From a virus, in UHGV virus genome UHGV-0105325: a DNA stretch of 48,561 nucleotides. One strand, given 5' to 3'. The notes under the pieces are model-generated. The model did not search any database and was not told where the DNA came from. It saw only the letters and a program-made list of their open reading frames with translations. Both the position numbers and the translations under genes were made by a program. Positions 3,432 through 42,228 of the stretch are shown here, piece after piece (position 1 is the first letter of the stretch; the number at the start of each line of letters is the position of its first letter).

Positions 3432-3458
3432 TGAAAGGGGCCATCAGGCCCCTTTTCT
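3432..3458. terminator. rho-independent terminator hairpin (aggggccatcaggcccctttt), usable in both directions
   Basis: GC stem plus T-run between the convergent tube gene and the endonuclease gene. Confidence 0.7.
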
Positions 3459-4892
3459 CCACATGTATTTTTTAGTTCCCGAATTTTCCGTAATCAAACA
3501 ACCCGCCTCATCCATCATTTGACGTTGAGTCTTTTTCTTGGAAAATACCGACGGGTCAACCCCTAACTTACTTAGCGTTTTTGGGATGTTAATCTTCCAC
3601 CATTGTTGCCGACTCATGAAACCCACTTTCCGGTGCCATATTCTGAATGATGTGACCGAATCATCAACCAGTTCGAATCCTGAGTTTTCATAACTTGACC
3701 CGTCGAAATAGTCACAATCTACGAACGATTGGCACCATTGCATATTTAGAGCCGCGGCCGCGTGTTTGAACAGCTTGGACTGACCACCTCTGACCATACA
3801 ACTCGTGGCATAACGTACCATATCGAATCCACCCTCAGCAATTTGGTTAAATGTCATAACTGCGACGATTTGACCGGATTTATGGGTGAGTGCGAAATTA
3901 TGTGAGGCCCGAGCATAGCCCTGAACGTGATGTTCAATCAGGAACTTCCGGGCATCTTTGCCGGGGATATTCACAATCTTACAGTCGCGAGCGTTGACTC
4001 TCACATCTTCGGAGTGCCCCGTGGCGTTTTTTATGATTCGCGTAATGATTGGTTTTTTATCTTTCCAGTCTTGTTCTGATATTGATATCAATCTATACCC
4101 AACACTGTTAGTTCTGATACGTTTGTTTTTGTGATATCCCCTCGGTCGTTTCTGCAGGCTGTGCCAGTATGTGCCATTGAATTCTATTGCCACTTTTGAA
4201 GCGTGGTCCACTATGTCGAGTTCTTGAGGTGCGATTAGTGAGCGATTCGAAATGTCAACATCGCCGATTAGCGACTGTATTTCCACTTCGAAACTTGATG
4301 GTCCCACGTTCGCGCATTTGGGGCAACCCACCCCGTAAGCATGCTGAAACGCAATCGGTGTGAAGTCTCCGTGTTTTTCGCATGTAACTACAATTTTGTC
4401 GCCAGATTTGGTGTATGATGTTTTGTCATAGGTATATGGACTACCACTGTCTTTCATTTTTTGGACGAATGATTCCGTATCGTATTTCCCACCTTGTTTG
4501 CACTTGGGACAACCTTGCCCCGTGGTGCAGTGTGCAGATGGAGTCTGGTAGAAATCTCCATGAGTGGGACAGGTGATTCTCATCTTTGTACGGGTGTCAA
4601 CATATGTTTCGGGGTGGTACTCATATTTATTTCCGTGTTTCTCTTTGGCGCGGTCGAGCATTTCAGAAACAGACTTCCGTTTGTTCGTATTTTTAATTTT
4701 TTTTGCACATTCTGGGCAGTTGCTGCCATTAGTGTGGTCTGCTGCAATCTGTAAGAAATCCCCGTGAATGCGGCATTTTATCCGAACTGTGTTCGCCTTA
4801 CCCGTGTAAACTACCCCCGTGTAATCGTACCTGTCACCGTGTACAGATTTGGCCTTATTGACGTATTCTTCGGTTGTCAACTTTTTGGACAC
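3444..4892 (-). CDS. homing-endonuclease-like protein: 3 zinc-ribbon repeats (CxxHGxF...GCPxC) + C-terminal Vsr/PD-(D/E)XK-like nuclease domain
   Basis: GTG start with GGGAGGAG RBS. Three copies of the repeat unit at aa 7-64, 72-133 and 138-195. C-terminus AIEFNGTYWHS...RIRTNSVGYRLISISEQDW resembles the Vsr/DUF559 core. Family assignment is by resemblance. Confidence 0.6.
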   Translation of the reverse strand: MSKKLTTEEYVNKAKSVHGDRYDYTGVVYTGKANTVRIKCRIHGDFLQIAADHTNGSNCPECAKKIKNTNKRKSVSEMLDRAKEKHGNKYEYHPETYVDTRTKMRITCPTHGDFYQTPSAHCTTGQGCPKCKQGGKYDTESFVQKMKDSGSPYTYDKTSYTKSGDKIVVTCEKHGDFTPIAFQHAYGVGCPKCANVGPSSFEVEIQSLIGDVDISNRSLIAPQELDIVDHASKVAIEFNGTYWHSLQKRPRGYHKNKRIRTNSVGYRLISISEQDWKDKKPIITRIIKNATGHSEDVRVNARDCKIVNIPGKDARKFLIEHHVQGYARASHNFALTHKSGQIVAVMTFNQIAEGGFDMVRYATSCMVRGGQSKLFKHAAAALNMQWCQSFVDCDYFDGSSYENSGFELVDDSVTSFRIWHRKVGFMSRQQWWKINIPKTLSKLGVDPSVFSKKKTQRQMMDEAGCLITENSGTKKYMWRKGA

Positions 4893-4957
4893 GTTCTCCT
4901 CCCTCTCATGATGACCAACGTGTTTCGATTGAATAATACACGCGCTACATAGTCAAA
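3457..4957 (-). mobile_element. free-standing endonuclease gene cassette bounded by imperfect 43-bp direct repeats (3414-3456 and 4958-5000)
   Basis: The repeats aagggtcc(a/g)gcaag(c/t)taa(g/a)tgaaaggggcc(a/g)tcaggcccctt differ at 4 positions. The left copy is the 3' end of the tube gene plus its terminator. The cassette is AT-richer than its neighbours. Confidence 0.45.
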
Positions 4958-4977
4958 ACAAGGGTCCGGCAAGTTAA

Positions 4978-5002
4978 ATGAAAGGGGCCGTCAGGCCCCT
5001 TA
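4978..5002. terminator. hairpin aaaggggccgtcaggcccctt (duplicate of the tube-gene terminator)
   Basis: Near-identical to the 3432-3458 hairpin. Lies downstream of leftward gene 5004-5546. Confidence 0.5.
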
Positions 5003-5003
5003 G

Positions 5004-5546
5004 TTATTTCTGGTCAAGCATGTCGGACTGATAACGTTCGAGCTTGACGTATTCCTGCACAGACCATCCCATTGCTCTAAAGTCCGATGCCTCAGCAGCA
5101 TCAGTGGAGTAAGTGGTCCTTCTACCACCTGGAACTGAAATCCCGTACAGGTCGGCGACTGGCTTAATCTGCGCAACTGGTGTGGTACCCTCACGAATGA
5201 GGGTACCATCGACTTTACCCCGCAGCATGGCGGCTCGGCAGGATTCATCCTCGCCAAATATAGCCGCCTCCATTACATCAATAGCTTGCGATGGCGAGTG
5301 TGAATATTTATCGAAGGTTGGACCTTTGATGCGCTGTGCGATTTTGAACAGTCGTTTTTCTTGCGCGTGATACAAATCACTTAGTCGCTGATATCTCTCA
5401 TCGGGCTCACTACCCATCGTCGCCAGGAGCATCTCATACGCTTGAAGCGTGTACTCACCACTCATCGACAACTGACCTTGCTCATCTTTTATTTTGCACA
5501 GTCGGTCGATTTGTACAATCAGGTTTTCTTTTGTCACTCTTCTCAT
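5004..5546 (-). CDS. hypothetical protein
   Basis: 180-aa ORF with GGAGT RBS. Second gene of the leftward cassette driven from the promoter at 5850-5886. Confidence 0.6.
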   Translation of the reverse strand: MRRVTKENLIVQIDRLCKIKDEQGQLSMSGEYTLQAYEMLLATMGSEPDERYQRLSDLYHAQEKRLFKIAQRIKGPTFDKYSHSPSQAIDVMEAAIFGEDESCRAAMLRGKVDGTLIREGTTPVAQIKPVADLYGISVPGGRRTTYSTDAAEASDFRAMGWSVQEYVKLERYQSDMLDQK

Positions 5547-5827: not shown

Positions 5828-5849
5828 TTTGCATCTCCTGTTGTTGATA

Positions 5850-5886
5850 TGACTAACTCTACACCATCTTGACGTACCCGTCAACA
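5850..5886 (-). promoter_or_regulatory. early promoter with TGACG-N4-CGTCA palindrome (core 5870-5883); -35 TTGACG, 17-bp spacer, -10 TAGAGT
   Basis: Read on the minus strand: TTGACGggtacgtcaagatggtgTAGAGT, then the conserved leader ...atcaacaacaggag and ATG. Confidence 0.7.
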
Positions 5887-9680: not shown

Positions 9681-10327
9681 GTTTAATTAACCTTCTGGTA
9701 AAGCGCGGCCCACAGCTTGGGTCGCTTCAGTTCGATGCTGTCCTGTCTGATGACCTTGACGCCAGCGTGGACATTGTACAGTACCCTATTGAGACAGGTA
9801 CGCCAATTGCGGACCACATCATCTATCAACCTATTCGTTACACGATGACGGGTGCGGTATCGAACAATCCGCTGAAAGTTAGTATCACTGATTTCACCGG
9901 GGCGTTGACAAATCTCGTCGATGACAATCCGTTCATTGCCGCCGGTGCCGGTCTGTTCGCGGGGTGGTTAAGCGGCTCAAATGAAACTCGCTCCAGTACA
10001 ACACTGAACACTTTGCTTGATTTCATGTACTCCGGCCAGGTATTCACAGTGGATACGGGTGAAATCACGCTGAACAATATGGTCATTCAGCGCATCGGGC
10101 GCTCTAAAGACCCGGAGAATGAGAACGGACTGATATTTGTTGCTGAACTGCAACAGATTGTCACACTTGACCGCGTGGCGAATGGTTCACAACCGGCACA
10201 GTATCAGCTGAACAGTAACGACGTTTCCAGCACATCCATATCCGGACTGATTGAGCGTGGTTACATTAACGTGAAGACAGCCGCAACGAATGTTGCCAAT
10301 CAGGTTACGACACTTTTGGATTTGTAA
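9677..10327 (+). CDS. baseplate-associated protein
   Basis: 216-aa ORF coupled to the previous gene. Confidence 0.5.
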   Translation: MSLINLLVKRGPQLGSLQFDAVLSDDLDASVDIVQYPIETGTPIADHIIYQPIRYTMTGAVSNNPLKVSITDFTGALTNLVDDNPFIAAGAGLFAGWLSGSNETRSSTTLNTLLDFMYSGQVFTVDTGEITLNNMVIQRIGRSKDPENENGLIFVAELQQIVTLDRVANGSQPAQYQLNSNDVSSTSISGLIERGYINVKTAATNVANQVTTLLDL

Positions 10328-10329
10328 AA

Positions 10330-10352
10330 AAAAAAAGCCCCGGAGACCGGGG
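10330..10352. terminator. A-run + GC hairpin (gccccggagaccggggc); as read it is oriented for the opposite strand
   Basis: A11 followed by an inverted repeat. The U-tract is on the minus strand only, so it may terminate antisense transcription. Confidence 0.4.
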
Positions 10353-10617
10353 CAAACATACAGGAGCACAACAGAGAGGTTATGGTTTACAGGTTAGACG
10401 TCATCTAAACTCTAAACCGTTGTATTGGTTGAACCGCCACGGTGACCAGCCGCATTCGTGCATGCCTGGCTACACATTCCGGCTACCCGCTGATGCGAAG
10501 GAATAGGACACCCCGGACAGCTAAAGACACATGTGCTATATGCCTGTGAATGAATAATTACATTGTTTGACGTGAGTGTCAATAGTATACTTGACATTAT
10601 TTTCACAGGAGGGCGAC

Positions 10618-14915: not shown

Positions 14916-14938
14916 AAGGGGCCTTCCGGCCCTTTTCT
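14914..14938 (+). terminator. rho-independent terminator aaaaggggccttccggcccttttct
   Basis: Hairpin plus T-run after the fibre gene. Confidence 0.7.
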
Positions 14939-15063
14939 CACATATCCTATCGATGCACCCCTTAACCCATACGCCACAACACGCCAAACTTGCAGTTAAA
15001 TTGACTAATGAGAGATTCGCGGGGTATCATTAGTGTATCTTCCGTCAATCCCTGTGGGTACCG

Positions 15064-16380: not shown

Positions 16381-16611
16381 GGTTTTACAACCTTCCCACC
16401 AGTTTTGCCACCGGGACACTCTGTCCCGGTCGGCCATCAGAACTTCCCCATTATGTGGAATTACCGTAGCGGCCTTTTCAGGGTCGCCATCGGTTGTCCA
16501 CAATTCACCACTCGGCGTAAGCAAGTCATTAGACGGAGGCGGGCATTTACGCACTTCCTGAGCACACGCAGTTAAAGCAAGTACAGATATCAGCAGGATG
16601 AGTTTTTTCAT
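16375..16611 (-). CDS. o-spanin (Rz1-like outer-membrane lipoprotein)
   Basis: Signal peptide MKKLILLISVLALTAC with lipobox LTAC, Pro-rich mature part, directly after the i-spanin gene. Confidence 0.65.
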   Translation of the reverse strand: MKKLILLISVLALTACAQEVRKCPPPSNDLLTPSGELWTTDGDPEKAATVIPHNGEVLMADRDRVSRWQNWWEGCKTL

Positions 16612-16931
16612 TTTACGGTCGTATCATACAGGTCGAGGATACCGCTATCTTTGACACACTGGGCGGTGGCGGAGTCTTTGATTCGGTCACGGTAGATGGT
16701 GACTTTTTCAACGACTTTTTTGGCCCGGGCTTCTTTCAGTTCCTGTTGCTTTTTCTGCAATTCCACATCGGAGGCGTTGAGTTTTTCCTGCAGCGCGTCA
16801 CGGGCTTCTACGGCCGCCTTATATTCCTTGAAATCGTCCAGTTTGACCGCATTCTTACCCGAAAAATAACCCATAGCGTACACTGCAACCATTATGCTAC
16901 CGATTACCCCGGCGAGTATCACGTTACGCAT
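16608..16931 (-). CDS. i-spanin (Rz-like)
   Basis: N-terminal TM segment followed by a charged coiled-coil; sits between the endolysin and the lipoprotein. Confidence 0.65.
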   Translation of the reverse strand: MRNVILAGVIGSIMVAVYAMGYFSGKNAVKLDDFKEYKAAVEARDALQEKLNASDVELQKKQQELKEARAKKVVEKVTIYRDRIKDSATAQCVKDSGILDLYDTTVK

Positions 16932-16932
16932 A

Positions 16933-17538
16933 TTAGCCTCCTAAATTATATTTACCAGCCTCATGTGGGAGAGTCCCTGGTTTAGTCTCTCCCAGTGTAT
17001 ACAGGCACAAATACTCTTCCTGCTCCCGACGAATTGGCTGCCCGGAACAGTTATTGCTTTTAATGCGGCAGTCTTTACCACCATCGAACACCCAACGAGG
17101 AATCTGTTTGCACGCGTTCTTCCAGTCGCCTTTTTGCAGCAACTTAAAGAATGTTGACCCCTTACATTTAGTAGGTCCAATGTTGTACGGGCAGAACGAT
17201 GCGATACCAACCTGTTGTACCGGGTTCAGTTTTACCGGGATATTGTCACGTACCCATTTGAGTGACTTTTGTGCTTCTTTATCGTTCAGAAGGTCGCATT
17301 GCTTTTCGGTAAGCCGCATACCCTTTGTCACCGGCCTACCATCGATGCGCGTCACACCCCGGCAGATGGTCCAGATGGGAGGATTTGCACTGTCCAGATA
17401 CGCCGTCAGCCTGTTCCCTTCCTTCTCGTTCAGGAACTGATTGAGGATATCCGTCTGCGTGACTACCGCAGTACCCGTACCACCCATTGCAAATGCGGTA
17501 AGAAGGGCGGTCATTTGTTTACTTAAAGGATTTTTCAT
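16933..17538 (-). CDS. SAR-type endolysin (glycoside hydrolase 24 / phage 21 R-like lysozyme)
   Basis: N-terminal weakly hydrophobic Gly/Ala-rich segment ALLTAFAMGGTGTAVV, then the catalytic E...D...T triad context EGNRLTAYLDSANPPIWT. Confidence 0.7.
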   Translation of the reverse strand: MKNPLSKQMTALLTAFAMGGTGTAVVTQTDILNQFLNEKEGNRLTAYLDSANPPIWTICRGVTRIDGRPVTKGMRLTEKQCDLLNDKEAQKSLKWVRDNIPVKLNPVQQVGIASFCPYNIGPTKCKGSTFFKLLQKGDWKNACKQIPRWVFDGGKDCRIKSNNCSGQPIRREQEEYLCLYTLGETKPGTLPHEAGKYNLGG

Positions 17539-17591
17539 TCGGTAACACCTGCTGTACAATTAGGTTTAATCCTAACATACAAGGGCGATAA

Positions 17592-17702
17592 AATGTACAA
17601 GACTAAACCACGTAAAGCAGGTGATGCCGGTGGAGCATGTGTTAAACCCCGTGGTAAAACCGGTGATGCGGGCGGTGCCAAAGTAAAACGCCGGACCAAA
17701 TA
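17592..17702 (+). CDS. 36-aa highly basic peptide with duplicated K-x-GDAGGA motif
   Basis: ORF MYKTKPRKAGDAGGACVKPRGKTGDAGGAKVKRRTK with AAGGG RBS, not in the ORF track (<60 aa). Coding status uncertain. Confidence 0.3.
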
Positions 17703-17903
17703 AACAATGTACACCTTCCTGATTGCCTCAGTAATCGCCAGACCCCGGGGAGCCTCGTTTCTCTTCGTGATGGTAGCAACTCTTTTTCAGGAGTTGTGTG
17801 GTAATCTGGATGGTTCAATTTATTTTTTTTCCTCGCCGCATTTTGTGATTTCATCGTAGCCGGTACTCTGTACCGGTTCGGAACATCCCGAAAGTCTCTC
17901 GAT

Positions 17904-18119
17904 ATGATGCTCATCAGCATTGTTTCCATGTCGATTAATCTGGTAGGCTGGCTCCTGTGGTTTTTCTATCAACCACTCGACGTCTATGTGGCAATGTTCA
18001 CGATGCTATACTGTGCGGCAATCCTCATGATACTGAAAAAGGATAGTGACGATGCTGGAGGTATTGCGGTTCATATCGACAACTCTGGTCATCATCCTTA
18101 TGCTGGCGCAGGTCGTTGA
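17904..18119 (+). CDS. putative pinholin/holin (2 TMDs, 71 aa)
   Basis: Two hydrophobic helices and a charged C-terminus, adjacent to the SAR-endolysin cassette. Topology fits a pinholin. Confidence 0.45.
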   Translation: MMLISIVSMSINLVGWLLWFFYQPLDVYVAMFTMLYCAAILMILKKDSDDAGGIAVHIDNSGHHPYAGAGR

Positions 18120-18427: not shown

Positions 18428-18442
18428 CGCGCCGGTAGTTTG

Positions 18443-18655: not shown

Positions 18656-18679
18656 CTTCTCTACCCTCTCTGTTGTTGA

Positions 18680-27516: not shown

Positions 27517-27827
27517 GATTGTCGGCATATCAATTGTGTTCCAAGTTTGGTTTTGAAGATGGTGACATCGTGGGTAATTATTGTGATGAAAATAAAATTG
27601 ACCTTAAAAATCGATATCACAAAGATGTTCTTATCAGGCTGGTGAGGAAATACCTCGAACCAAAATTGACACTGGGTATTTCTCTTTATGAAATTTGTAG
27701 TATTCACAATCCTATTCGGTGCGATGATGAATGTTGGGACAAATGTAACGAATGCGATGTGATTGTCGATATAACCCGCGAGCAGATTTTAGAAACCATT
27801 GAAGAGGTTGAACCAGATGACGAATGA
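27513..27827 (+). CDS. hypothetical Cys-rich protein
   Basis: 104 aa with a C-terminal CDDECWDKCNECD cluster. Confidence 0.5.
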   Translation: MRLSAYQLCSKFGFEDGDIVGNYCDENKIDLKNRYHKDVLIRLVRKYLEPKLTLGISLYEICSIHNPIRCDDECWDKCNECDVIVDITREQILETIEEVEPDDE

Positions 27828-28290
27828 CCTTCTCGAATGGCAACGTAAGCACGGTATCACGGCTGAGGCGCTGGCTGACCTTGTGACAATGGTGGGACTG
27901 GATGTCCCACGCTCAACCAAAGATACGCCCGAAGCACGTGTGCAGGATGAGGCGCGACTACTGGCAAGCAAAATGGGCTGGCGACTGTTTCGCAACAATG
28001 TCGGAGTTCTAAAAGATGAGCGGGGTGTACCAGTACGGTACGGTATCGCAAATGACTCCCCGGCGATGAACAAACGTATCAAGTCGAGCGACCTCATCGG
28101 TATCCGCCCCGTGGTCATCACGCCTGATATGGTCGGGTCAACCATTGGACAGTTTGTGGCACGTGAGGTGAAGAAAGCCGGGTGGAAGTATAAAGGTACG
28201 GAACACGAAGAGGCACAGCTTGCATTTGGGACGCTCATTATCGGGCTGGGCGGTGACTTCCGGTTCTGGTCAGGAGAAGGGGAGTTGTGA
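27817..28290 (+). CDS. VRR-NUC family PD-(D/E)XK nuclease
   Basis: Motifs D(LIG) ... E-x-K (FVAREVKK) in the VRR-NUC order. Start taken at MTNDLLEW. Confidence 0.5.
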   Translation: MTNDLLEWQRKHGITAEALADLVTMVGLDVPRSTKDTPEARVQDEARLLASKMGWRLFRNNVGVLKDERGVPVRYGIANDSPAMNKRIKSSDLIGIRPVVITPDMVGSTIGQFVAREVKKAGWKYKGTEHEEAQLAFGTLIIGLGGDFRFWSGEGEL

Positions 28291-28706
28291 TGGGAAAAAT
28301 AAATTATTTTAAAAATGAACACTCTTTTTTGAGTAATTTTTACCCCGTGCAAATTACGATAGATGGTATTACATACTGTAGCGTCGAACATGCTTATGTT
28401 GCAATGAAAACACTCGACATCGAAATAAGAAAGAAAATTTCACTGATGAATAGACCAGGTGAAGTAAAAAAATTTGGTAGAACAATACAATTACGTAGCG
28501 ATTGGGACCACGTAAAACTTCCTCTGATGATGGGATTATTGTGTATTAAATTTCAAAATCCGGAATTAAAACTAATGTTGAAGTCTACAGGGTCCGACTA
28601 CCTGGAAGAAGGGAACTGGTGGGGTGATACATTCTGGGGGGTTTGTCGCGGCATAGGGGAAAACAATTTAGGCAAGCTGCTGATGGAAATCAGAAGTCAG
28701 ATTTAG
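28287..28706 (+). CDS. NADAR (YbiA/DUF1768) domain protein
   Basis: HSFLSNFYP...ITY.SVEHAYVAMK matches the NADAR core. The gene is markedly AT-richer than its neighbours. Confidence 0.6.
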   Translation: MMGKINYFKNEHSFLSNFYPVQITIDGITYCSVEHAYVAMKTLDIEIRKKISLMNRPGEVKKFGRTIQLRSDWDHVKLPLMMGLLCIKFQNPELKLMLKSTGSDYLEEGNWWGDTFWGVCRGIGENNLGKLLMEIRSQI

Positions 28707-28711
28707 CCAGT

Positions 28712-28745
28712 TGACCACTTCGTCAACCTGTGCCATACTGCAACA
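28712..28745 (+). promoter_or_regulatory. promoter with palindrome variant (TTGACCacttCGTCA); -10 CATACT
   Basis: Immediately upstream of the TetR-like HTH gene. Confidence 0.6.
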
Positions 28746-28768
28746 AATTACCTAATGGAACCGAAATT

Positions 28769-29047
28769 ATGAGCAAAGAACATATTCTGGAAGTAGCTTA
28801 CACGATAGCACAGCGCGACGGCTTTGGTAATCTTACTCGCGATGGTGTGGCGGCTGAGGCTGGCGTGGCGATGGGGTCAGTTAACCACCACTGGGTTAAG
28901 ATGTCCGCACTTCGTGAAGCAGTGATGCAACGGGCAGTAGAAGAAGAAAACCTCGAATTGATTGGACAGGGAATGGCGCTGGGTGATAGCGTTGCCAAAT
29001 CCGCGCCACTGGAGCTACGCACCCGCGCGCTGATCACCCTGCTTTAA
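28769..29047 (+). CDS. short TetR-family-like HTH protein (92 aa, DNA-binding domain only)
   Basis: ILEVAYTIAQRDGFGNLTRDGVAAEAGVAMGSVNHHW resembles the TetR N-terminal HTH. The upstream ATG at 28730 lies inside the -10, so the start is set at MSKEHIL. Confidence 0.5.
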   Translation: MSKEHILEVAYTIAQRDGFGNLTRDGVAAEAGVAMGSVNHHWVKMSALREAVMQRAVEEENLELIGQGMALGDSVAKSAPLELRTRALITLL

Positions 29048-29069
29048 TAACTAAAACAGAGAGACGGAG

Positions 29070-31427
29070 ATGACACATATGAATCCCCCTGTGCAGGGGG
29101 CCGATTCCCTGCACTTTATCGTCTGCAAAACAGTACCTTCACAGAAGAAGCCCGGACGCACGGAGAAGATGCCGTGTAATGCTGCTGGCGATGTGGTCAG
29201 TCTGCACGTTGCTGACCGCATGACTCACGCTCAGGCGGTTACGGCGGCTTCTGCACTGGGTGAGTCATATCGCCCCGCGGTTATTCTTACGGGTGACGGA
29301 CGTTTCTGCGTGGATATCGACGGTGCGCTGCAGGACGACAACACCTGGTCGCCGCTTGCGCTGGAGTTATGCACCACTTTTGCCGGTTGCTACGTGGAAG
29401 TGAGCAACAGTGGTAAAGGTCTGCACATTTTCGGTTATAGCCCGTCCATCCCGGAACACACCTGTAAAAATATTCCGCTACACATCGAGCTGTATACCTC
29501 TGACCGTTTCATTTGTCTGGGAAGTGGTGCGCAGGGTGACATGATGTTTAACGCATCCGCACCGCTCAATATCGTGGCCGCACGTTATTTCCCGCAGACC
29601 GAGCAAGTTACGGCGACGGAATGGACCACAACTCACGCTGAAGGTTCATGTCCGATTGAGGACGATGTGAAACTCATCGAAAAAGCCTGTTCGAGTAAAG
29701 GTGGTGTCGCGGCTGTTTTCGGTGGTAAAGCAACATTCAAAGACCTGTGGACGCGTAATGTTGAGGTACTGAGTGATGCGTATCCGGATGAGGACCGCGA
29801 GTATGACGGGTCAAGCGCTGATGCAGCGTTAGCCCAGCATCTGGCGTTCTGGACCGGTGGTAACTGTGAACGTATCGAACGCCTGATGCGCCTGTCCGCC
29901 ATGGTACGTCCCAAATGGGATAGTCACAAATCGTACATGCAACGTACCATTCTGGGCGCTTGCGCCCGTCAGACAACTTATTACAGTGTCGGTGCACCGA
30001 TTGAACTGGTGACCCCTGCTCAGGTTGTTGAGACTGGTGCACCGGTTATCCGCAGTGGCTATCAGTTTATTGGTGGCTCACAGCTTGTTGACCACTTCAA
30101 AGGCTGCGTGTATGTGGCAGACAGTCACCGCATTCTCACGCCTAACGGTCAGATGCTGAAGTCTGAGCAGTTTAATGCAATGTATGGTGGGTATGTGTTT
30201 GCGCTGGATGACGGCAATGAAAAAACAACAAAAAAAGCTTTTGAAGCGTTCACCGAGAATCAGTGCATCATGTTCCCGAAGGTTGACCGCTCGACATTCC
30301 GTCCGGACCTGTCACAGGGTGCCATTATTGAGGAAGATGGCCTGCGTCATGTCAACGCATACGTACCGGTGACGGTGGCGAGCATCCCCGGAGATGTGAC
30401 ACCTTTCCTCACTCATCTAGCCAAACTGTTACCCATCGAGCGTGACCGTGAGATTCTGTTGTCATACATGGCAGCGTGTGTGCAGTACAAAGGGACCAAG
30501 TTCAAATGGGCACCATTGCTGCAGGGTGTTGAAGGTAACGGTAAAACACTGTTCACACTGTGCGTAATGGAAGCGGTCGGTTCACGTTACAGCCACATGC
30601 CGCCAGCGCAGGAAATTGGCGAGAAGTTCAACGCATGGTTATTCGATAAAATATTTATCGGCGTGGAAGATATTTACGTTCCGGAGCAGAAACTTGAACT
30701 GATTGAAACACTAAAGCCGATGATTACCGGTGAGTATCTTGCTAAACGTGCGATGCAACAGGACCAGGTAATGCACCGCCTGTGCGCTAACTTCATGTTT
30801 AACAGTAACCACAAAAACGCCGTGCGCAAGACCGCTAATGACCGCCGCTTTGCTATTTTCTACACCGCGCAGCAGGAGCATATCGACATTGTGCGCGACG
30901 GTATGGGTGGCGACTACTTCCCTAACCTGTACGACTGGCTCAAACGTGGTGGTGGATTTGCAGCCGTGACGCATTATCTGGAGAATTACTCCATCCCCGC
31001 ACAGTTTAACCCGGCGACACATTGTCAGCGTGCACCAGAGACCAGTAGCACCCACGAAGCAGTGACAGCATCACTCGGCAGCGTTGAGCAGGAAATAATG
31101 GAAGCAATTGACGAGGGTCGCCAGGGCTTTGCAGGTGGCTGGGTGAGCAGTAAGGCACTGGACAACCTGTTACGCCAGATGCGCGCTGATCGCACTGTAC
31201 CAGTGGGTAAACGTCGTGACATGATGCGGTCATTGGGTTACGACTGGCACCCTGCGCTCAAAGATGGACGTGTGAATAACGTGATAATGATTGACGGTGG
31301 TAAGCCGCGGTTGTACATCAAGATTGGACACATTCACGCTAACCTCACAAATGCGGCAGACGTGGCGCGCCATTATGCGGCGGCACAGGGTGATACAAGT
31401 ACGATGGCCTTTGCAGAAACCAAATAA
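29070..31427 (+). CDS. primase-helicase (phage/plasmid P4 / D5 family, SF3 helicase C-terminus)
   Basis: 785 aa with Walker A GVEGNGKT and Walker B-like IGVEDI. The N-terminal primase-polymerase-like region and D5_N-like middle are assigned by resemblance. Confidence 0.65.
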   Translation: MTHMNPPVQGADSLHFIVCKTVPSQKKPGRTEKMPCNAAGDVVSLHVADRMTHAQAVTAASALGESYRPAVILTGDGRFCVDIDGALQDDNTWSPLALELCTTFAGCYVEVSNSGKGLHIFGYSPSIPEHTCKNIPLHIELYTSDRFICLGSGAQGDMMFNASAPLNIVAARYFPQTEQVTATEWTTTHAEGSCPIEDDVKLIEKACSSKGGVAAVFGGKATFKDLWTRNVEVLSDAYPDEDREYDGSSADAALAQHLAFWTGGNCERIERLMRLSAMVRPKWDSHKSYMQRTILGACARQTTYYSVGAPIELVTPAQVVETGAPVIRSGYQFIGGSQLVDHFKGCVYVADSHRILTPNGQMLKSEQFNAMYGGYVFALDDGNEKTTKKAFEAFTENQCIMFPKVDRSTFRPDLSQGAIIEEDGLRHVNAYVPVTVASIPGDVTPFLTHLAKLLPIERDREILLSYMAACVQYKGTKFKWAPLLQGVEGNGKTLFTLCVMEAVGSRYSHMPPAQEIGEKFNAWLFDKIFIGVEDIYVPEQKLELIETLKPMITGEYLAKRAMQQDQVMHRLCANFMFNSNHKNAVRKTANDRRFAIFYTAQQEHIDIVRDGMGGDYFPNLYDWLKRGGGFAAVTHYLENYSIPAQFNPATHCQRAPETSSTHEAVTASLGSVEQEIMEAIDEGRQGFAGGWVSSKALDNLLRQMRADRTVPVGKRRDMMRSLGYDWHPALKDGRVNNVIMIDGGKPRLYIKIGHIHANLTNAADVARHYAAAQGDTSTMAFAETK

Positions 31428-31449
31428 GCCCTTCGGGGCTTTTTTTTTG
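31427..31449 (+). terminator. rho-independent terminator gcccttcggggc + T9
   Basis: Canonical hairpin plus U-tract. Confidence 0.8.
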
Positions 31450-31458
31450 CAATTAGTA

Positions 31459-31492
31459 TTGACGAGTCCGTCAAGGTGGGTTATCTTTAACT
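31459..31492 (+). promoter_or_regulatory. promoter with palindrome TGACGagtcCGTCA; -35 TTGACG, -10 TATCTT
   Basis: Same geometry as the family. Drives the acidic-protein operon. Confidence 0.65.
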
Positions 31493-31520
31493 CATCGGAA
31501 CAACAACAGAGGATAGAGAG

Positions 31521-31751
31521 ATGAAAACGGGTAGCGATTTGAAAATGGCTTTAAGAGATGCCGTAAATTATTCTTTTGTAGGCTGCGCAGATGCAAGAGA
31601 AACATTCCTGATTGCACAAAGTGTGATTGAGTTTTTTTGTGCAATTGGTTTGAGTGATGAAGAATATGTAGAAATTTTATCGAATTGTGGCGGTTCAGAT
31701 GCTGAAACAGATGACGCAATCGATCGTTTAATTGAGGAATTTAAGCAATGA
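31521..31751 (+). CDS. small acidic protein (possible DNA-mimic / anti-restriction candidate)
   Basis: 76 aa, strongly acidic C-terminal half. First gene of a freshly initiated early transcript. Confidence 0.5.
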   Translation: MKTGSDLKMALRDAVNYSFVGCADARETFLIAQSVIEFFCAIGLSDEEYVEILSNCGGSDAETDDAIDRLIEEFKQ

Positions 31752-31921
31752 AAAACATTATCAGTCATCACAAACTGTCTGACCTGCTGGGTAATATGAC
31801 CGAGGTTCAGGCGTTGAACACACTGTCACGTATGCGTGCGCAGGCTGACCGGGACGGACTGTGTGTCACTCGTCTCATTGTTGAAGGTAAAGTGCGGGAA
31901 CAGTGGATATGGAAGCACTAA
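31748..31921 (+). CDS. 57-aa hypothetical protein
   Basis: ATGA-coupled to the previous gene. Not in the ORF track. Confidence 0.4.
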   Translation: MKNIISHHKLSDLLGNMTEVQALNTLSRMRAQADRDGLCVTRLIVEGKVREQWIWKH

Positions 31922-32256
31922 GTTATTGTCAGCTGATGGAGCGCTGTTTAGCGGCTGAGGCGCGGGTGGTGGAACTGGAGTCCCGCACTGTGAAGCTGCC
32001 AGACGAATTATCGGGGGAAACATTACTCGATAATGCCAGTGGAATCGACCTTGTTTATTCCGATGATACTGGAGTATTGGAGTACACGAATATCAATGGG
32101 TGTTTTGTCAAAGTTACTGCACCACCAGATAAAGTAATCAGATTTAGATTTAGCAATAAAGGCATATACATAAGACTTGTAGACAGAGTTAAAACCCATG
32201 AACACGCGGGCATAACTATTGATTTTCCTAAAAACTATAAGGATTTTATATGGTGA
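31903..32256 (+). CDS. hypothetical protein
   Basis: 117-aa ORF. Confidence 0.45.
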   Translation: MDMEALSYCQLMERCLAAEARVVELESRTVKLPDELSGETLLDNASGIDLVYSDDTGVLEYTNINGCFVKVTAPPDKVIRFRFSNKGIYIRLVDRVKTHEHAGITIDFPKNYKDFIW

Positions 32257-32299
32257 ATATGCACATTATTTCCGTTGATGACATCAAGTGGGAGGCTGA

Positions 32300-32599
32300 G
32301 TGAAATCAGTATTGTTCGCCCTGGACGGTGTACTGCGGGATGCGCAGGGCGAACCAATTAAGGACAATATCGCGCTCGCAAGGGCGCTGTACTGTGCGGG
32401 TCACGATGTGCTGGTGACCGGTCCACGTGATGCGTATGAATGGTTACGCAAGCACGATGTGACATTTGATGACCTGTTAGCCGGTCGTCACATTACGATT
32501 GACGCCACAAAACTGATGTTTGCGGTTGTCAATGATGAGATTATGGCGCACGCGCTAAAATGCGCAGGTGTGCATACCTGGAGATATGAAAATGCGTAA
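32300..32599 (+). CDS. hypothetical protein
   Basis: 99-aa ORF with GGAGG RBS. Confidence 0.5.
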   Translation: MKSVLFALDGVLRDAQGEPIKDNIALARALYCAGHDVLVTGPRDAYEWLRKHDVTFDDLLAGRHITIDATKLMFAVVNDEIMAHALKCAGVHTWRYENA

Positions 32600-32882
32600 A
32601 TTACTGTTCTGTCTGATGCTGTGCGGTACTGCTAATGCAGCTGTTACTGCTGAGACAAATGAATCACAGGTTGCTAACCTGCTCTTTAACGGTTGTAGCG
32701 CTCAACGTGCGCAAATGGGTGTGCAGGAAATGATTAAACAGGCTAACCCGGGCGGCAATCCTGTGGCGACCGACCTTATCATCAAAGGTTACAAGTTCGG
32801 CATTGACTACCCGAATGTTGGATGTAACCAGTTCTTTACGGTTGTTATTGACCAGTTAGTTAAAAGCCGGAGCAAAGTGTAA
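32586..32882 (+). CDS. secreted small protein (signal peptide)
   Basis: MKMRKLLFCLMLCGTANA signal sequence with GGAGAT RBS. Confidence 0.5.
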   Translation: MKMRKLLFCLMLCGTANAAVTAETNESQVANLLFNGCSAQRAQMGVQEMIKQANPGGNPVATDLIIKGYKFGIDYPNVGCNQFFTVVIDQLVKSRSKV

Positions 32883-34006
32883 TGAGTATACTGACTGACG
32901 AGAAGTTACTGGCCGACGTGACCGCAGGGATGAGTGGTCACGCTATTGCGAAAAAGTACAGCATGAGTCCCGGCAACATTAACCGCCGCATTAAACGTCT
33001 CGGTGCGCGCGGTCTGGGTCACGGTGGTGATGTGTCCCGCTTTGTGCCGGACGGTTACAAGGTGAAAGGTACATCGTCACTGGTGAAGGAGGACGGGACG
33101 GTAGCGCTACAATGGGTCAAGACTGATGTGGATGTCGAGCGTCAGTTGAAAATGATGCAGGAAGCGATTGCGGCGCTTACAGCGGATATTAAGCCAGTTG
33201 AGTTACCCGGGTTTACCAGACACCCCACTGCGGAAAACCTTTGCAACCTGTACACTGTGAGTGATTTTCACCTGGGGATGCTGGCATGTCTGGAAGAGTC
33301 CGGCGAGGACTGGGATATCAAAATAGCGGAGAACATGTTTGTTAACTGGTTCAGCGCTGCCGTTGAGATATCACCGTGGTCACATACCGCCGTGGTGTCA
33401 CTGCTGGGCGACCTGATGCACAGTGACTCACTGGCACCGGTAACCCCGGCGAGCGGACATGTACTGGATGCGGATAGCCGCTATTTTAAAATGATTCAGG
33501 TGACAATGCGCATGGTGCGCCGGGCGATTGAGATTGTCGCGCTGAAACACCCGCAGGTGCACATCGTCGTATCGCAAGGGAATCACGACGAGACAGGTAT
33601 GTTGTGGCTAACCAGCGCGCTTGAGATGATGTATGGACACGATGACCGTGTAACTGTGGACACATCGCCGGACGTGTTCAAAATGTTCCGCCACGGCGAC
33701 ACGGTACTCTTTTTCCACCATGGTCACAAAGTGCGATTTGACAGTATCGAGTCGGTGATGGTTTCCCGGTTCCGCCGCGACTATGGTGAGACAAGTTACG
33801 CATACGCCCACGTGGGTCACCTGCATCACCAGAAAATTGTTGAGAGTAACTGTATGGTGGTTGAACAACACCGCACGCTGGCGGCTAAGGATGCGTATGC
33901 GGCCCGGGGTGGATGGTTCAGTGGGCGTTGTGCCAATGTCATTACATATCATAAGCAATACGGTGAAGTTAGCCGTCAGTCAATCAGTCCGGAGATGTTG
34001 AAATGA
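32882..34006 (+). CDS. HTH-domain + calcineurin-like metallophosphoesterase fusion protein
   Basis: N-terminal HTH-like ~50 aa. Downstream phosphoesterase motifs SDFHLG, GDLMH, GNHD, HHGH, GHLHH in canonical order. Confidence 0.55.
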   Translation: MSILTDEKLLADVTAGMSGHAIAKKYSMSPGNINRRIKRLGARGLGHGGDVSRFVPDGYKVKGTSSLVKEDGTVALQWVKTDVDVERQLKMMQEAIAALTADIKPVELPGFTRHPTAENLCNLYTVSDFHLGMLACLEESGEDWDIKIAENMFVNWFSAAVEISPWSHTAVVSLLGDLMHSDSLAPVTPASGHVLDADSRYFKMIQVTMRMVRRAIEIVALKHPQVHIVVSQGNHDETGMLWLTSALEMMYGHDDRVTVDTSPDVFKMFRHGDTVLFFHHGHKVRFDSIESVMVSRFRRDYGETSYAYAHVGHLHHQKIVESNCMVVEQHRTLAAKDAYAARGGWFSGRCANVITYHKQYGEVSRQSISPEMLK

Positions 34007-34209
34007 GTGACAAGTACAGAGTGGTAAGTGTAATTCGTTATACTGTTTTTGGAGATGCAGTTAAATGTCCAGCAGTGCAAGTTAGAGTTGGTTATTTCTG
34101 GTGGGTAACACTGGCGCATTGCGAGAATGTGAAACAAGCTCTAACTTATATCGAAAATGTTAAGAAGCACAAGAAAGATAAAATATTAGGTGTTGTCACT
34201 GAAGTATGA
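34003..34209 (+). CDS. hypothetical protein
   Basis: 68 aa, coupled to the upstream gene. Last gene of the rightward early arm. Confidence 0.45.
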   Translation: MSDKYRVVSVIRYTVFGDAVKCPAVQVRVGYFWWVTLAHCENVKQALTYIENVKKHKKDKILGVVTEV

Positions 34210-34211
34210 AT

Positions 34212-34243
34212 AAAAGGCCCGCTAAATGCGGGCCTTTTATTCA
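34212..34243. terminator. bidirectional terminator aaaaggcccgctaaatgcgggcctttta
   Basis: Hairpin flanked by an A-run and a T-run, between convergent genes. Confidence 0.75.
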
Positions 34244-34245
34244 TT

Positions 34246-34386
34246 CATCGACTCTGTTAACTTTCGTATCGCAACCTATCATTTGATGAAACACCCATGG
34301 AGCAAATTTACCCAATCCAATACCCGTTCTTTCGGAGATGTTCCACACCATTGACCAAATGAATTTCCAAAGATTTAATTTCATTT
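34246..34386 (-). CDS. 46-aa hydrophobic micro-protein
   Basis: GGGAG RBS. ATG overlaps the stop of the zinc-ribbon gene. Uncertain. Confidence 0.3.
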
Positions 34387-34388
34387 TA

Positions 34389-34967
34389 TTATCTCCCACA
34401 GTTGCGACATTTGCCATTTGCTACATAGCGTTCTGCAATAATATTACAGTGCTTGCAAGGCTCATACGGAGTGTACCAACGTTTACCGTCAGCGATGGCC
34501 TGCTGGCGCGGTGATTTGATTTTAATGACCCCAACGTGGATTCCTGATTCACTCAGTAACAGGGCGTTTTTCATCGTCTGTAACTGCTCATTCAAAACGG
34601 AAATATTATGCTCAATCATTGCGATGTTCTCACGCAGTGCGTCAACCTCACCAGCAGTGTTAACAATGGCTGGTTTTGGTTTTTTCCATTCCCCCGTCAT
34701 GCGTTGTTCGGTTAAGCAGAAAACACATTTACCAGCAGTGTTACGGACGCCCGGATGTCCACATTCGCTGTTCGGTTTCTTCTGTACCCTCCATGAGCGG
34801 CCATCGCTAAGACCGTCGAGAACTTTCTGATAGAGTTCGTTGCGTGCAGGAAGACCCATGTTTTTCGCTTTCACAAAATCATGGTGGTCATGAAGTGCAC
34901 AAATACTACACAATCCTGTTTCTTTAAATTTTGTAGTGCCGTGACAATTATCTCTGAGGTGAATCAT
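34389..34967 (-). CDS. nuclease-less zinc-ribbon protein (3 Cys4 ribbons separated by a coiled coil)
   Basis: AGGAGAGA RBS. Ribbons CHG..GLCSIC, CGHPG..GKCVFC and CKHC..GKCRNC resemble the repeat unit of ORFs 3444-4892 and 41425-42228. Own TTGACC-18-TATAGT promoter at ~34995-35026. Confidence 0.6.
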   Translation of the reverse strand: MIHLRDNCHGTTKFKETGLCSICALHDHHDFVKAKNMGLPARNELYQKVLDGLSDGRSWRVQKKPNSECGHPGVRNTAGKCVFCLTEQRMTGEWKKPKPAIVNTAGEVDALRENIAMIEHNISVLNEQLQTMKNALLLSESGIHVGVIKIKSPRQQAIADGKRWYTPYEPCKHCNIIAERYVANGKCRNCGR

Positions 34968-35063
34968 GTTTCTCTCCTTTTGTAGAGTATATACTATAAA
35001 ACAATAGAGAATTACGGGTCAATACCTCATTTTACCCCGAAATACCCGAGGTATGGGGGTGGC

Positions 35064-35317
35064 GAATTTACTTTCACAATCATAGGCTTACGCGCATAAC
35101 CGAAAACCCCGTACATTCTTCCCTTCTTCCCTCTTATAAACTATATAAACTATACATTATGTATTATACTACATTTATACTATATATTATATACTCTCTC
35201 TTACTACTAATTACTATTTTATAAGGGTATAAGGGTAATAAGTAGTATAGTACTGAAAGGTAAAGAGTTTTTGATACCCCGTTGACTACCCCGAACGAGT
35301 TTTAACGGGGTATGTGG
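35064..35317. repeat. Copy 2 of the ~255-bp AT-rich duplicated regulatory block, upstream of the terminase/head operon
   Basis: About 93% identical to 98-353, including the hairpin ACCCCGAACGAGTTTtAACGGGGT. Confidence 0.85.
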
Positions 35318-35376
35318 CAATGACGGTACAGTCATGGTAAAATCGTGGCATTAGAGACAATAGCGTGGGGGCCAAC

Positions 35377-40830: not shown

Positions 40831-41027
40831 TAGCCCACCACCTTATTGACAAGTCGGTCCATCGCTATCCATCGCTCAGATACTGAACCGTCCTCTTTGG
40901 TCGCGGTGAATGTCACGGTATCTTCGCGGAAGTCCAGTTTGATGTCTTTGACGAGTATAACACCGTCCACATCGATAAATTTGTCATTGTTGCGGAGCAT
41001 TACCGCTTTGACGGGTTTATAGTTCAT
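40830..41027 (-). CDS. hypothetical protein
   Basis: 65 aa, ATGA-coupled. Confidence 0.5.
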   Translation of the reverse strand: MNYKPVKAVMLRNNDKFIDVDGVILVKDIKLDFREDTVTFTATKEDGSVSERWIAMDRLVNKVVG

Positions 41028-41173
41028 TTTCCATACGCCTCACGTAACACAGCGTTAGCGAGCGCCCAACCTTCATGCTTACGTGCAAGCTGTTGTGCGG
41101 CCTGTAACAGTTCTTTATCGACAATACGTGCCTCTGATACAGGACGGTTGTAGCCGGGAAGTAATGTATTCAT
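41024..41173 (-). CDS. 49-aa hypothetical protein
   Basis: First gene after the promoter at 41200-41236, with the conserved leader caacaacagagaggg. Not in the ORF track. Confidence 0.45.
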   Translation of the reverse strand: MNTLLPGYNRPVSEARIVDKELLQAAQQLARKHEGWALANAVLREAYGK

Positions 41174-41199
41174 CTCTCAAACCCTCTCTGTTGTTGATG

Positions 41200-41236
41200 A
41201 ACTGAGTATACGTCATCCTTGACGAACTCGTCAACT
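41200..41236 (-). promoter_or_regulatory. promoter with palindrome TGACGaactCGTCA (41220-41233); -10 TATACT (18-bp spacer)
   Basis: Family geometry. Confidence 0.65.
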
Positions 41237-41240
41237 TAAA

Positions 41241-41441
41241 TCACTCCTGCGGCGGCTCGGGTAATGGTTGCCAGTGGGTTACAAAGCCGCCATTTTCGCT
41301 TTCAACCCACCACCGGTCGCCATTCCACGAACAGTTCCATTGATAGTGTGATTTCCCCAGGTCATTTTGCTCTTCTACATAGCACCAGTAACGGCCGGCA
41401 TCGCCCGGCATCCGCTCACTACACTTAATCCAGTTTGCCAT
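41241..41441 (-). CDS. DUF551-like small protein
   Basis: Trp-rich; C-terminus HWQPLPEPP is typical of the DUF551 family. Confidence 0.5.
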   Translation of the reverse strand: MANWIKCSERMPGDAGRYWCYVEEQNDLGKSHYQWNCSWNGDRWWVESENGGFVTHWQPLPEPPQE

Positions 41442-42228
41442 ACAATGTCCCCACTCGTTTCAAATCTCGCTGTGCGTGACAGCTGTAATTACCATCGTCC
41501 CATTTTATACCTAAAACATTGAGCGAAAACTTCACAACGTCGTCCAATATGAACCACTCCGTACATCCGTCAAATCCCGAATAGTTGGTGGAATTTACCA
41601 CTGAATGTATCGAGTGCAACGTTTTCTCCAACAATTGTACGAACGCTCCTTCCGCGTTAAGTGTGCCAACCACATCGAAACCGAAGGGTGTTTCACGCCT
41701 TAAAACCGTCAGTCGGTCTTCAAAATTATTCGAGATACCTATCTTTATTGCATTTTCGTCAAACCGTTTCAGAATGTATAGTGTACCCGGTATGGTGCTA
41801 TCGAACCCCTTCCTAGCACATCCCGGACACCTCCTACCCATCATGAATTTGTTGTAGTTTGTGGTTTTCCATTCACCATGTAACGCGCATTTGAGGTGTA
41901 GATAGGTTCTACAACCACGCCACTGTTCCAATTTGACCAATGATGTTAAAGATTTTTCACTTTTAAGAATTCCCTTAACGTTCGAAATAACCTCATCCTG
42001 CGTTAAACGTTTAGTGCTGGAACAGGCGGGACATGTCCGACCATCGTTGATGAACTTGTTGTATGTAGTGCTAAGCCATTCACCGTGTAAATCGCAATTC
42101 ATTTTCAACTTTGTGGATACTCCGCGCCATTCCCCAACAAATCCAACGAACTTGTAAGGTGTTCCCACTGTTCTTTCTCTTAGTTTCTCAATGGCATCCT
42201 TTTCTGGTATTGGAAGTGCCATAATCAC
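41425..42228 (-). CDS. homing-endonuclease-like protein: 2 zinc-ribbon repeats + T5orf172 (GIY-YIG-like) domain
   Basis: Repeat units C.LHGEW...CPxC twice. C-terminal GTLYILKRFDENAIKIGISNNFEDRL matches the T5orf172 core. Confidence 0.6.
   Translation of the reverse strand: MIMALPIPEKDAIEKLRERTVGTPYKFVGFVGEWRGVSTKLKMNCDLHGEWLSTTYNKFINDGRTCPACSSTKRLTQDEVISNVKGILKSEKSLTSLVKLEQWRGCRTYLHLKCALHGEWKTTNYNKFMMGRRCPGCARKGFDSTIPGTLYILKRFDENAIKIGISNNFEDRLTVLRRETPFGFDVVGTLNAEGAFVQLLEKTLHSIHSVVNSTNYSGFDGCTEWFILDDVVKFSLNVLGIKWDDGNYSCHAQRDLKRVGTLYGKLD

Follow-up and report, generated by a model that had tools for sequence, protein, structure and literature searches.

Two zinc-finger homing endonucleases and a separate zinc-ribbon protein, a candidate late regulator, in a Jedunavirus-like phage genome

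We analysed the UHGV virus genome UHGV-0105325, a stretch of 48,561 bp that is referred to here as the window and that represents the complete, circularly permuted genome of a Jedunavirus-like Klebsiella myophage, with 92–94% nucleotide identity to JD001, KpV79 and related phages. Three open reading frames (ORFs) on the minus strand, here called ORF A, ORF B and ORF C, were the subject of the work, and ORF calling returned the coordinates and strands that the initial annotation had given for them (Table 1). The late genes lie on the plus strand in two runs, one from terS (35365/35377) past the head genes as far as 47978, the other starting at the neck/tail-completion gene (403) and reaching ~16380; replication and early genes occupy ~16400–34200, and small minus-strand islands break up the late gene runs. 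The initial annotation had placed one zinc-binding repeat unit in all three proteins. Pfam, a unit hidden Markov model (HMM) and hhalign upheld this for ORF A and ORF C but not for ORF B, and on sequence evidence the genome appears to hold two distinct zinc-binding repeat families, not one. ORF A and ORF C are free-standing products of homing endonuclease genes (HEGs), and ORF B is a core protein encoded beside one of two duplicated control blocks.

Table 1. Positions of the genes, protein domains and control elements in the window. AF2, AlphaFold2.
Feature	Positions	Strand	Basis or remark
Control block A, upstream of the neck/tail-completion operon (403...)	91–353	+	Repeats, alignment; downstream gene phrog_222, tail completion/Neck1
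Inverted repeat TACCCCG-N12-CGGGGTG, block A	323–348	+	
Extended -10-like TGTGATAAT, block A	371–379	+	22 nt after the inverted repeat
ORF A, 482 aa, free-standing homing endonuclease	3444–4892	-	phrog_559/3339 "HNH/homing endonuclease", 6e-110
ORF A residues 200–290, PD-(D/E)xK, EDxHD/Vsr-like nuclease domain	4023–4295	-	phmmer against PDB 3r3p
ORF A residues 4–197, three tandem DUF723/DUF4379 (CapR-like) treble-clef zinc-finger units	4302–4883	-	Unit HMM, Pfam, AF2
58-aa ORF overlapping the ORF B end, co-oriented	34241–34417	-	Equivalent of JD001 gp37; phrog_20955, unknown function
ORF B, 192 aa (JD001 gp36 homologue), core zinc-ribbon/coiled-coil protein	34389–34967	-	phrog_20468, 1.2e-120 over residues 1–192, unknown function
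ORF B residues 150–191, canonical Cys4 zinc-ribbon unit SPRQQAIxxGxxWYxPxxPCxxCxxxAERYVANGxCxxCG	34395–34520	-	Unit HMM 5e-23
ORF B residues 108–139, coiled coil, presumed dimerisation helix	34551–34646	-	AF2 helix 104–140, heptads
ORF B residues 54–85, diverged zinc-ribbon unit copy	34713–34808	-	C69, H71, C81, C84 invariant; deep unit HMM i-Evalue 1.5e-5
ORF B residues 8–23, degenerate N-terminal metal site C8...C20xxC23	34899–34946	-	Variable; missing in 7/26 family members
Sigma70-like promoter of ORF B, TTGACC-18-TATAGT	34993–35022	-	10/12 matches
Control block B, upstream of terS; AT-rich core between TACCCC/GGGTA repeats	35056–35317	+	Repeat families D1, D3, D5
Inverted repeat TACCCCG-N12-CGGGGTA, block B	35287–35312	+	
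Extended -10-like TGGTAAAAT, block B	35335–35343	+	22 nt past the inverted repeat; the terS ATG (35377) follows after ~34 nt
ORF C, 267 aa, free-standing T5orf172 (GIY-YIG superfamily) homing endonuclease	41425–42228	-	phrog_681 endonuclease, 1e-52
ORF C residues 148–229, T5orf172/MUG113 nuclease domain	41542–41787	-	Pfam
ORF C residues 7–140, two CapR/DUF723-type zinc-finger units	41809–42210	-	Pfam, hhalign
99-aa ORF, divergent neighbour of block A	48131–48430	-	phrog_9632, unknown function

The three units of ORF A, each of ~62 aa, scored i-Evalues of 6e-24, 4e-23 and 5e-17 against the unit HMM. Pfam matched DUF723 (1.8e-7) and DUF4379 (2e-4), and the AF2 model gave the units predicted local distance difference test (pLDDT) values of 88–98, with each unit folded as a helix, a beta-hairpin bearing C..H, and CPxC at a helix N-terminus. 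In the nuclease domain, residues 223–286, which span the IE.NG.YWH segment, matched I-Bth0305I (PDB 3r3p, "mobile intron protein") at E=3e-4 by phmmer. The Pfam match to MTES_1575 was weak and below its cut-off (18.3 versus 38.2), and relatives of the nuclease are named Vsr or carry DUF559. Foldseek found nothing significant for the whole ORF A model, because the model resembles beads on a string, and NCBIfam gave nothing usable for any of the three proteins. The ~190 aa at the C-terminus of ORF A (residues 291–482; 3447–4022, minus strand) had no Pfam or PDB match, yet are covered by phrog_559/3339.

For ORF C, Pfam reported CapR (PF21817) at 4e-15 in two stretches and DUF723 at 1.5e-6, and the unit HMM gave 2e-7 and 1e-8. 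The nuclease domain passed the cut-offs of T5orf172 (PF10544; 6e-5, 23.9 bits versus 20) and MUG113 (PF13455; 22.9 bits versus 22.3). Compared in hhalign with the ORF A-type unit profile, which comprised 373 units from database relatives of ORF A plus its own three, the two units of ORF C reached 95.4% and 96.6% probability (E 2e-8 and 5e-10), and all five window units, three from ORF A and two from ORF C, aligned cleanly. The metal ligands C-x2-H...C-P-x-C were conserved in every HEG unit across 82 sequences, among which C40, C59, C62, C108, C128, C131, C171, H174, C190 and C193 were invariant and H43 and H111 nearly so. The domain composition that the initial annotation had assigned, three units with a Vsr-like nuclease in ORF A and two units with a T5orf172 domain in ORF C, was thereby confirmed, as was the occurrence of one zinc-finger module in both classes of endonuclease, a modularity that had already been published. 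Database relatives of the ORF A repeat region mostly carry a Vsr-like nuclease, and some (P0096, P0124, P0126 and P0137) carry T5orf172.

ORF A was present in 11 of ~71 related phage records, with matching flanks in the others, and ORF C in 4 of 66, the others matching its first ~81 nt alone. The phages that differ in this way are otherwise 90–94% identical, and both genes thus show the presence/absence polymorphism at a fixed site with conserved flanks that characterises HEGs. We regard it as almost certain that ORF A and ORF C are HEGs with a known module in common, in which tandem treble-clef zinc fingers of the CapR/DUF723/DUF4379 type would provide target recognition. Recent exchange of units between the two genes in this genome was rejected, since the units are just ~23–24% identical; it was further ruled out by the Pfam results, in which CapR matched ORF C only and DUF723 matched both. 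To judge by these sequences, the units represent an ancient shared domain rather than a recent shuffle. This part of the result is ordinary, adding two further examples of a published architecture.

ORF B, which had been described as carrying a condensed form of the same unit, behaved differently in every comparison. Aligned by hhalign with a 378-unit HEG profile, its three motifs each stayed below 4% probability, with 5–10 columns round CxxC aligned. A profile of ORF B's own unit (372 instances) reached 14% locally and 0.1% globally against the HEG unit, and the local alignment was out of register, pairing the first knuckle of the ORF B unit with the last of the HEG unit; the ORF C units, as positive control, had scored 95–97%. 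When all six-frame ORFs of the window were scanned with filters off at E<=10, the HEG-unit HMM matched ORF A and ORF C and never ORF B, and in the same scan the ORF B-unit HMM matched ORF B only. Pfam at E<=1 placed no DUF723, DUF4379 or CapR in ORF B, and these families occurred in 0 of 146 ORF B relatives; nor were they among the matches listed (25 of 28 Pfam families) for 59 single ORF B-type units. In secondary structure, a long beta-hairpin precedes the knuckle in the HEG unit and none does so in the third unit of ORF B.

Profile comparison thus established the homology of the units of ORF A and ORF C and found none for ORF B, the outcome that the initial annotation had itself named as speaking against its proposal that ORF B was recruited from the HEG module. 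That proposal has to be given up: ORF B is very probably not detectably related to the HEG module by sequence. The useful outcome of the analysis is this separation, and it is a reminder that similar cysteine spacings in small zinc modules should not be taken for homology.

The metal sites of ORF B also proved not to be the three Cys4 ribbons that had been described. Site 1 is a degenerate C...CxxC (C-x11-CxxC) and site 2 a C-x-H...CxxC (C-x-H-x9-CxxC; C69-x-H71...C81xxC84); only site 3 is Cys4 (CxxC-x12-CxxC; C171xxC174...C187xxC190), and site 2 is a diverged copy of its unit. AF2 (pLDDT 83.8) modelled an N-terminal domain (residues 1–95), one long helix and a C-terminal ribbon. In the family alignment of 26 sequences, helix hydrophobics at positions 111, 115, 118, 122, 125, 129, 132 and 136 (4-3-4-3) were kept despite sequence drift, which indicates a coiled coil. 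The C-terminal unit was nearly invariant across this family, and variation fell in the N-terminal half and the coiled coil. ORF B belongs to no Pfam or NCBIfam family, and its search against PDB sequences gave chance matches only. The unit, ~42 aa long, has the plan of a classical zinc ribbon (helix, G-x-x-W-Y, CxxC, 12 residues, CxxC), and its best match among sequences of solved structures was the eL43/L37ae zinc ribbon at a non-significant E of ~0.07.

An exhaustive profile search of 1.84 billion representatives yielded 345 relatives of ORF B. About twenty are full-length matches of 150–195 aa; most others have 200–430 aa with 3–7 tandem C-terminal units (consensus SPRQxAxxxGxxWYxPxxPCxxCGxxAxRxVxNGxCxGC) and the same module order as ORF B, with counterparts of sites 1 and 2 ahead of the tandem copies and often a "VYRTGxPCxxGHxxxRYVSxGxCxxC" variant after them. 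The C-terminal unit of ORF B matches PHROG 29682, 1081 and 23777, as do the multi-unit relatives, and every matching PHROG family is labelled "unknown function". A Pfam nuclease domain was found in 1 of 146 relatives (Endonuclease_7), and a four-unit relative (P0293) matches PHROG endonuclease VII. On sequence grounds ORF B would then be a short member of a separate, undescribed, Pfam-dark family of phage zinc-ribbon repeat proteins; going by the model, it looks like a minimal member, in which dimerisation through the coiled coil takes the place of further tandem units. By inference, ORF B would bind zinc, dimerise and bind DNA.

A related Jedunavirus (L020, IMGVR_UViG_2974619668_000001) carries an HNH gene in its head region (9697–10458, minus strand) with two "KxYxxGxPCxxGH...RYVSxGxCxxC" zinc units beside the HNH motif. 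This gene is a homing endonuclease that uses the unit family of ORF B, not CapR/DUF723.

The ORF B gene is part of the core genome, and 73 phage records each have one full-length copy. Its homologue in five more lineages, at 37–47% identity, always stands divergent from terS-terL-portal across a spacer of ~390–620 nt, and the genes on its other side vary. Such a homologue is followed by a small co-oriented ORF in L004, L009 and L010 and not in L006 or L008. The initial annotation had the gene standing alone and divergent; it is divergent from terS, but it is not alone, because the 58-aa ORF trails it on the same strand. The promoter and strong ribosome-binding site attributed to the gene are both there, the latter as AAGGAG 7 nt ahead of the ATG. 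Copies of TACCCC/GGGTA flank the sigma70-like promoter, which suggests autoregulation.

The small ORF after ORF B is mis-annotated in several records as "type I restriction-modification S subunit", and the record of phage SBP mislabels ORF B itself as "DNA double strand break repair ATPase". Gene content is variable in the interval 34010–34400, a hot spot that separates ORF B from the exonuclease gene and that holds, in relatives, a polynucleotide kinase or other small genes. The calcineurin-like phosphoesterase/exonuclease gene (32882–34006, plus strand) encodes an N-terminal segment that looks like a helix-turn-helix, and in some relatives the label "transcriptional regulator" or "winged helix-turn-helix" is attached to the gene or its surroundings; its product is another candidate DNA-binding protein near the early/late junction.

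The duplicated late block reported in the initial annotation is real, with ~90% identity between blocks A and B. When seven such regions from six lineages were aligned, conserved islands stood out in drifting sequence: GGGGTA and (A/T)ACCCC near the divergent gene, an AT-rich core, TATAAGGGTATAAGGGTAA, ATACCCCG, and the inverted repeat TACCCCG-N12-CGGGGT(A/G). The spacing of the inverted repeat is N12 in 6 of the 7 regions and N13 in L008, and the spacer sequence drifts; in L009 both arms have changed symmetrically (TACCCTG...CAGGGTG). TACCCCG occurs 17 times in the genome against 4.6 expected, the inverted repeat occurs twice genome-wide, once per block, and the blocks are the densest clusters of GGGTA/TACCC (block B second densest). 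We rejected the inverted repeat as an intrinsic terminator, as no T-run follows it and terminator calling gave none.

In IMG/VR, a scan detected the element in 31 stretches on ~20 contigs of 5–50 kb. Of these, 28 have it a short way upstream, mostly 30–70 nt, of terS or of the neck gene; L016, L018 and L034 are the exceptions. An extended -10 (TGnTAnnnT) starts 22–23 nt past the repeat in most lineages and 33 nt past it in two. The change from 22 to 33 nt is a step of 11 bp, so the helical face is kept, and the centre of the repeat falls at about -50.5 or -61.5 from the inferred start. As far as sequence can tell, the layout of the blocks has the geometry of an activator-dependent promoter.

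Genes of the ORF B family keep company with this element in the terS arrangement and in two others. All eight IMG/VR loci with a terS-side flank have a divergent zinc-unit ORF ~250–300 nt upstream of the element (8/8). The gene for a six-unit relative (P0151) is transcribed divergently from a minor-tail gene, and the intervening spacer shows the same islands as the terS block. The 43-kb contig L018 (IMGVR_UViG_3300010396_000063) holds, at 4674–4966, two perfect copies of TACCCCG-N12-CGGGGTA in opposite orientation, ~250 bp apart, with TACCCCGATACCCCG arrays between them, and an 87-codon stop-to-stop ORF with a single zinc unit begins right after one of the two copies.

It is plausible that ORF B regulates the duplicated late block, as had been proposed, because it adjoins the block in every lineage examined, its relatives adjoin the element in two other arrangements, and the distance to the promoter is activator-like and conserved in phase. 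We propose that ORF B would be made early from its own host-type sigma70 promoter and would dimerise via its coiled coil. The dimer would bind the TACCCC(G)/GGGTA repeats of both late blocks, chiefly TACCCCG-N12-CGGGGTA, whose centre would lie ~50.5 nt, or in some lineages 61.5 nt, ahead of the presumed start. Bound there, it might help the host RNA polymerase at the weak -35/extended -10 promoters of the packaging/head and neck/tail operons, and it would probably regulate its own divergent promoter too. In this scheme we infer where ORF B binds, where transcription starts and that the effect is activation, not repression. We put the explanation as a whole, with two HEGs, a separate ORF B and ORF B as block regulator, at a probability of about 0.45, and the regulator part sets this limit: that ORF B is a dimeric DNA-binding regulator of the late block promoters is a tentative proposal, to which we give somewhat less than even odds.

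Several observations weigh against a regulatory role. Klebsiella Jedunaviruses that are ~90–94% identical in nucleotide sequence have three classes of ORF B allele (93–97%, 60–63% and 38–39% aa identity), all with a conserved C-terminal unit, which suggests module replacement or diversifying selection at the locus. A factor that has to contact the host polymerase would be unusual in diverging this far, and the pattern is closer to that of a hot-spot or arms-race gene. The element-bearing phages are all from a single broad clade whose members have a primase-polymerase and a TetR-like gene in common, so the adjacency of ORF B and the element could be inherited synteny and not a functional link. 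At block A, the position that ORF B takes at block B is mirrored by the 99-aa ORF, which is not a zinc protein. The right arm of the inverted repeat has changed from G to T (TGGGGTG) in L004 and L010, which is compatible with an RNA/DNA hairpin instead of a protein site, and a TetR_N protein (28730–29047) is another DNA-binding candidate. Whole-model searches of fold libraries with ORF B gave no significant match, and a literature search on Jedunavirus transcription and termini found nothing bearing on ORF B and no transcriptome.

In the strongest alternative, ORF B would be an early accessory protein for host takeover, anti-defence or protein/RNA binding, located in a hot spot at terS, and the blocks would be served by another factor or by the host polymerase alone, with the repeat perhaps forming a hairpin. 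The extreme allelic divergence within a near-identical genus would fit, as would the neighbouring hot spot with its differing inserts, such as the polynucleotide kinase. Zinc ribbons are often protein or RNA binders, and the nearest solved sequences are those of ribosomal proteins; there are other candidates for DNA binding, and the arm variants of the inverted repeat fit G-U pairing. We give this alternative somewhat lower odds than the regulatory role. The best conserved part of ORF B is its C-terminal unit, near invariant while the rest varies, as would suit a fixed nucleic-acid target. Genes with zinc units are tied to the TACCCCG element in three gene arrangements, and units of this family also occur in fusions with HNH/EndoVII nucleases, where DNA binding is required.

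Less probable again is that ORF B binds DNA near terS for packaging or replication, as a pac-site or terminase accessory protein or as an origin binder acting on the AT-rich core and the iteron-like TACCCC. Its adjacency to terS is invariant, block B resembles an origin in its AT-rich core with short flanking repeats in both orientations, and several deposited genomes end within the block. Yet the second block lies upstream of the neck/tail operon, where a packaging function would be unexpected, and the P0151 gene adjoins a tail-operon block, not terS. A Jedunavirus has been reported to be without fixed termini, which implies headful packaging (PMC9007800); with this and the second, internal copy, we rejected block B as a physical genome end as the main reading. 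The extended -10 at a phase-conserved distance likewise points to a promoter.

The idea that ORF B consists of condensed, highly diverged CapR/DUF723 copies, a HEG DNA-binding array domesticated as in CapR (the precedent; PMC8096241), has in its favour a similar motif outline in a forced global alignment (helix, G-x-K-[YW]-[YD], metal knuckle, G-x-C-x-x-C) and AF2 models that set CxxC of sites 1 and 2 at a helix N-terminus in treble-clef fashion, but it is highly improbable and already largely refuted at the level of sequence by the hhalign, HMM and Pfam results above, by the two-knuckle zinc ribbon of the C-terminal unit with eL43/L37ae as its nearest solved sequences, and by the fixed synteny of a core gene where HEGs are sporadic.

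Some features of the genome lie apart from these questions. A 48-nt element occurs four times (5838–5885, 18670–18717, 25058–25105 and 41188–41235) and, read on the minus strand, forms a sigma70 promoter, TTGACG-17-TAGAGT, with a conserved leader. Each copy stands at the head of one minus-strand gene island, and the -35 box lies within a palindrome, TTGACG-N4-CGTCAA, that may be an operator. Inside the tail operon, the intergenic stretch 14916–15063 contains a GC hairpin and T-run (AAGGGGCC-TTCC-GGCCCTTTTCT) and then TTGACT-17-TATCAT, which by its sequence looks like a terminator followed by a re-start promoter ahead of the tail-fibre genes. An AP2-like guess for the 99-aa ORF beside block A was dropped, as it had no Pfam match at E<=0.01.

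ORF B, a gene without annotation, is conserved universally in Jedunavirus, a genus with therapeutic use. If it is an activator, it would represent a new family of phage late regulators, provide a first handle on the transcription programme of these phages, and offer a defined pair of protein and DNA site, TACCCCG-N12-CGGGGTA. As candidate new late regulators with a putative operator, the ORF B family is of moderate interest. A bolder reading, improbable in our estimate, is that the family comprises undescribed modular DNA readers, in which each ~42-aa unit reads one word of the TACCC/GGGTA type and arrays of 3–7 units, or 2 units doubled by the coiled coil, read the late-promoter blocks, and which are occasionally joined to HNH/EndoVII nucleases. 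This would amount to a new late activator of the sigma70 polymerase and a polydactyl recognition system, parallel to and independent of CapR/DUF723.

Among known systems, ORF A and ORF C belong with CapR/DUF723/DUF4379 (Netter et al. 2021, PMC8096241; Barth et al. 2023, PMC10448857; PF21817, PF05265 and PF14311). The PLE satellite encodes CapR, which represses the capsid operon of ICP1 and arose by domestication of the DNA-binding domain of T5orf172 endonucleases (PMC8096241). Together with DUF723 and a third Pfam DUF, given as DUF4397 in the text and DUF4379 in the Figure 5 legend, CapR is described as one of several related, tandemly repeated and recombining zinc-finger domains of phage HEGs (PMC10448857). 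Like the published CapR-type HEGs, ORF A and ORF C have tandem units N-terminal to the nuclease, varied nuclease partners and a sporadic distribution. ORF A differs from the CapR/T5orf172 systems in that its units are followed by an EDxHD/Vsr-like nuclease and then by an additional ~190-aa domain at the C-terminus. Its likeness to I-Bth0305I is confined to the nuclease core, residues 223–286; the PDB entry is named "mobile intron protein", whereas ORF A, encoded between tail genes, is free-standing and bears arrays of zinc fingers. ORF B, in turn, is a full-length member of phrog_20468 in the short coiled-coil form, and PHROG 20468, 29682, 1081 and 23777 are without described function, structure or Pfam model.

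RinA and Alt (TP901-1) are late activators that act on a promoter upstream of terS (PMC3152322). They resemble the arrangement described here in that the gene of the regulator, a candidate in our case, adjoins terS and that the late promoter lies directly upstream of terS with repeats upstream of the start. They belong to unrelated protein families of temperate Gram-positive phages and are encoded in the same orientation as terS, whereas the ORF B gene is divergent and its control block is duplicated.

The initial annotation had pointed to proteins of the Ogr/Delta type. ORF B is not one of these by sequence: it had no match to Pfam PF04606 at E<=1 and lacks the CX2CX22CX4C motif of Ogr, having CxxC-x12-CxxC instead, and PF04606 appeared in 1 of 59 related units at a chance-level 0.018. 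With 192 aa, a coiled coil and 2–3 predicted metal sites, ORF B is also built differently. In common with P2 Ogr, P4 Delta and 186 B, it is a small phage protein predicted to bind zinc, here a proposed activator of late promoters of the sigma70 polymerase. At P2 late promoters, Ogr binds an inverted repeat, TGT-N12-ACA, at about -55 (PMC3931495, PMC3152322); the inverted repeat described here, TACCCCG-N12-CGGGGTA, has the same 12-bp spacing and lies upstream of the promoter at about -50.5 or -61.5. By analogy, ORF B may work like an activator of the Ogr type.

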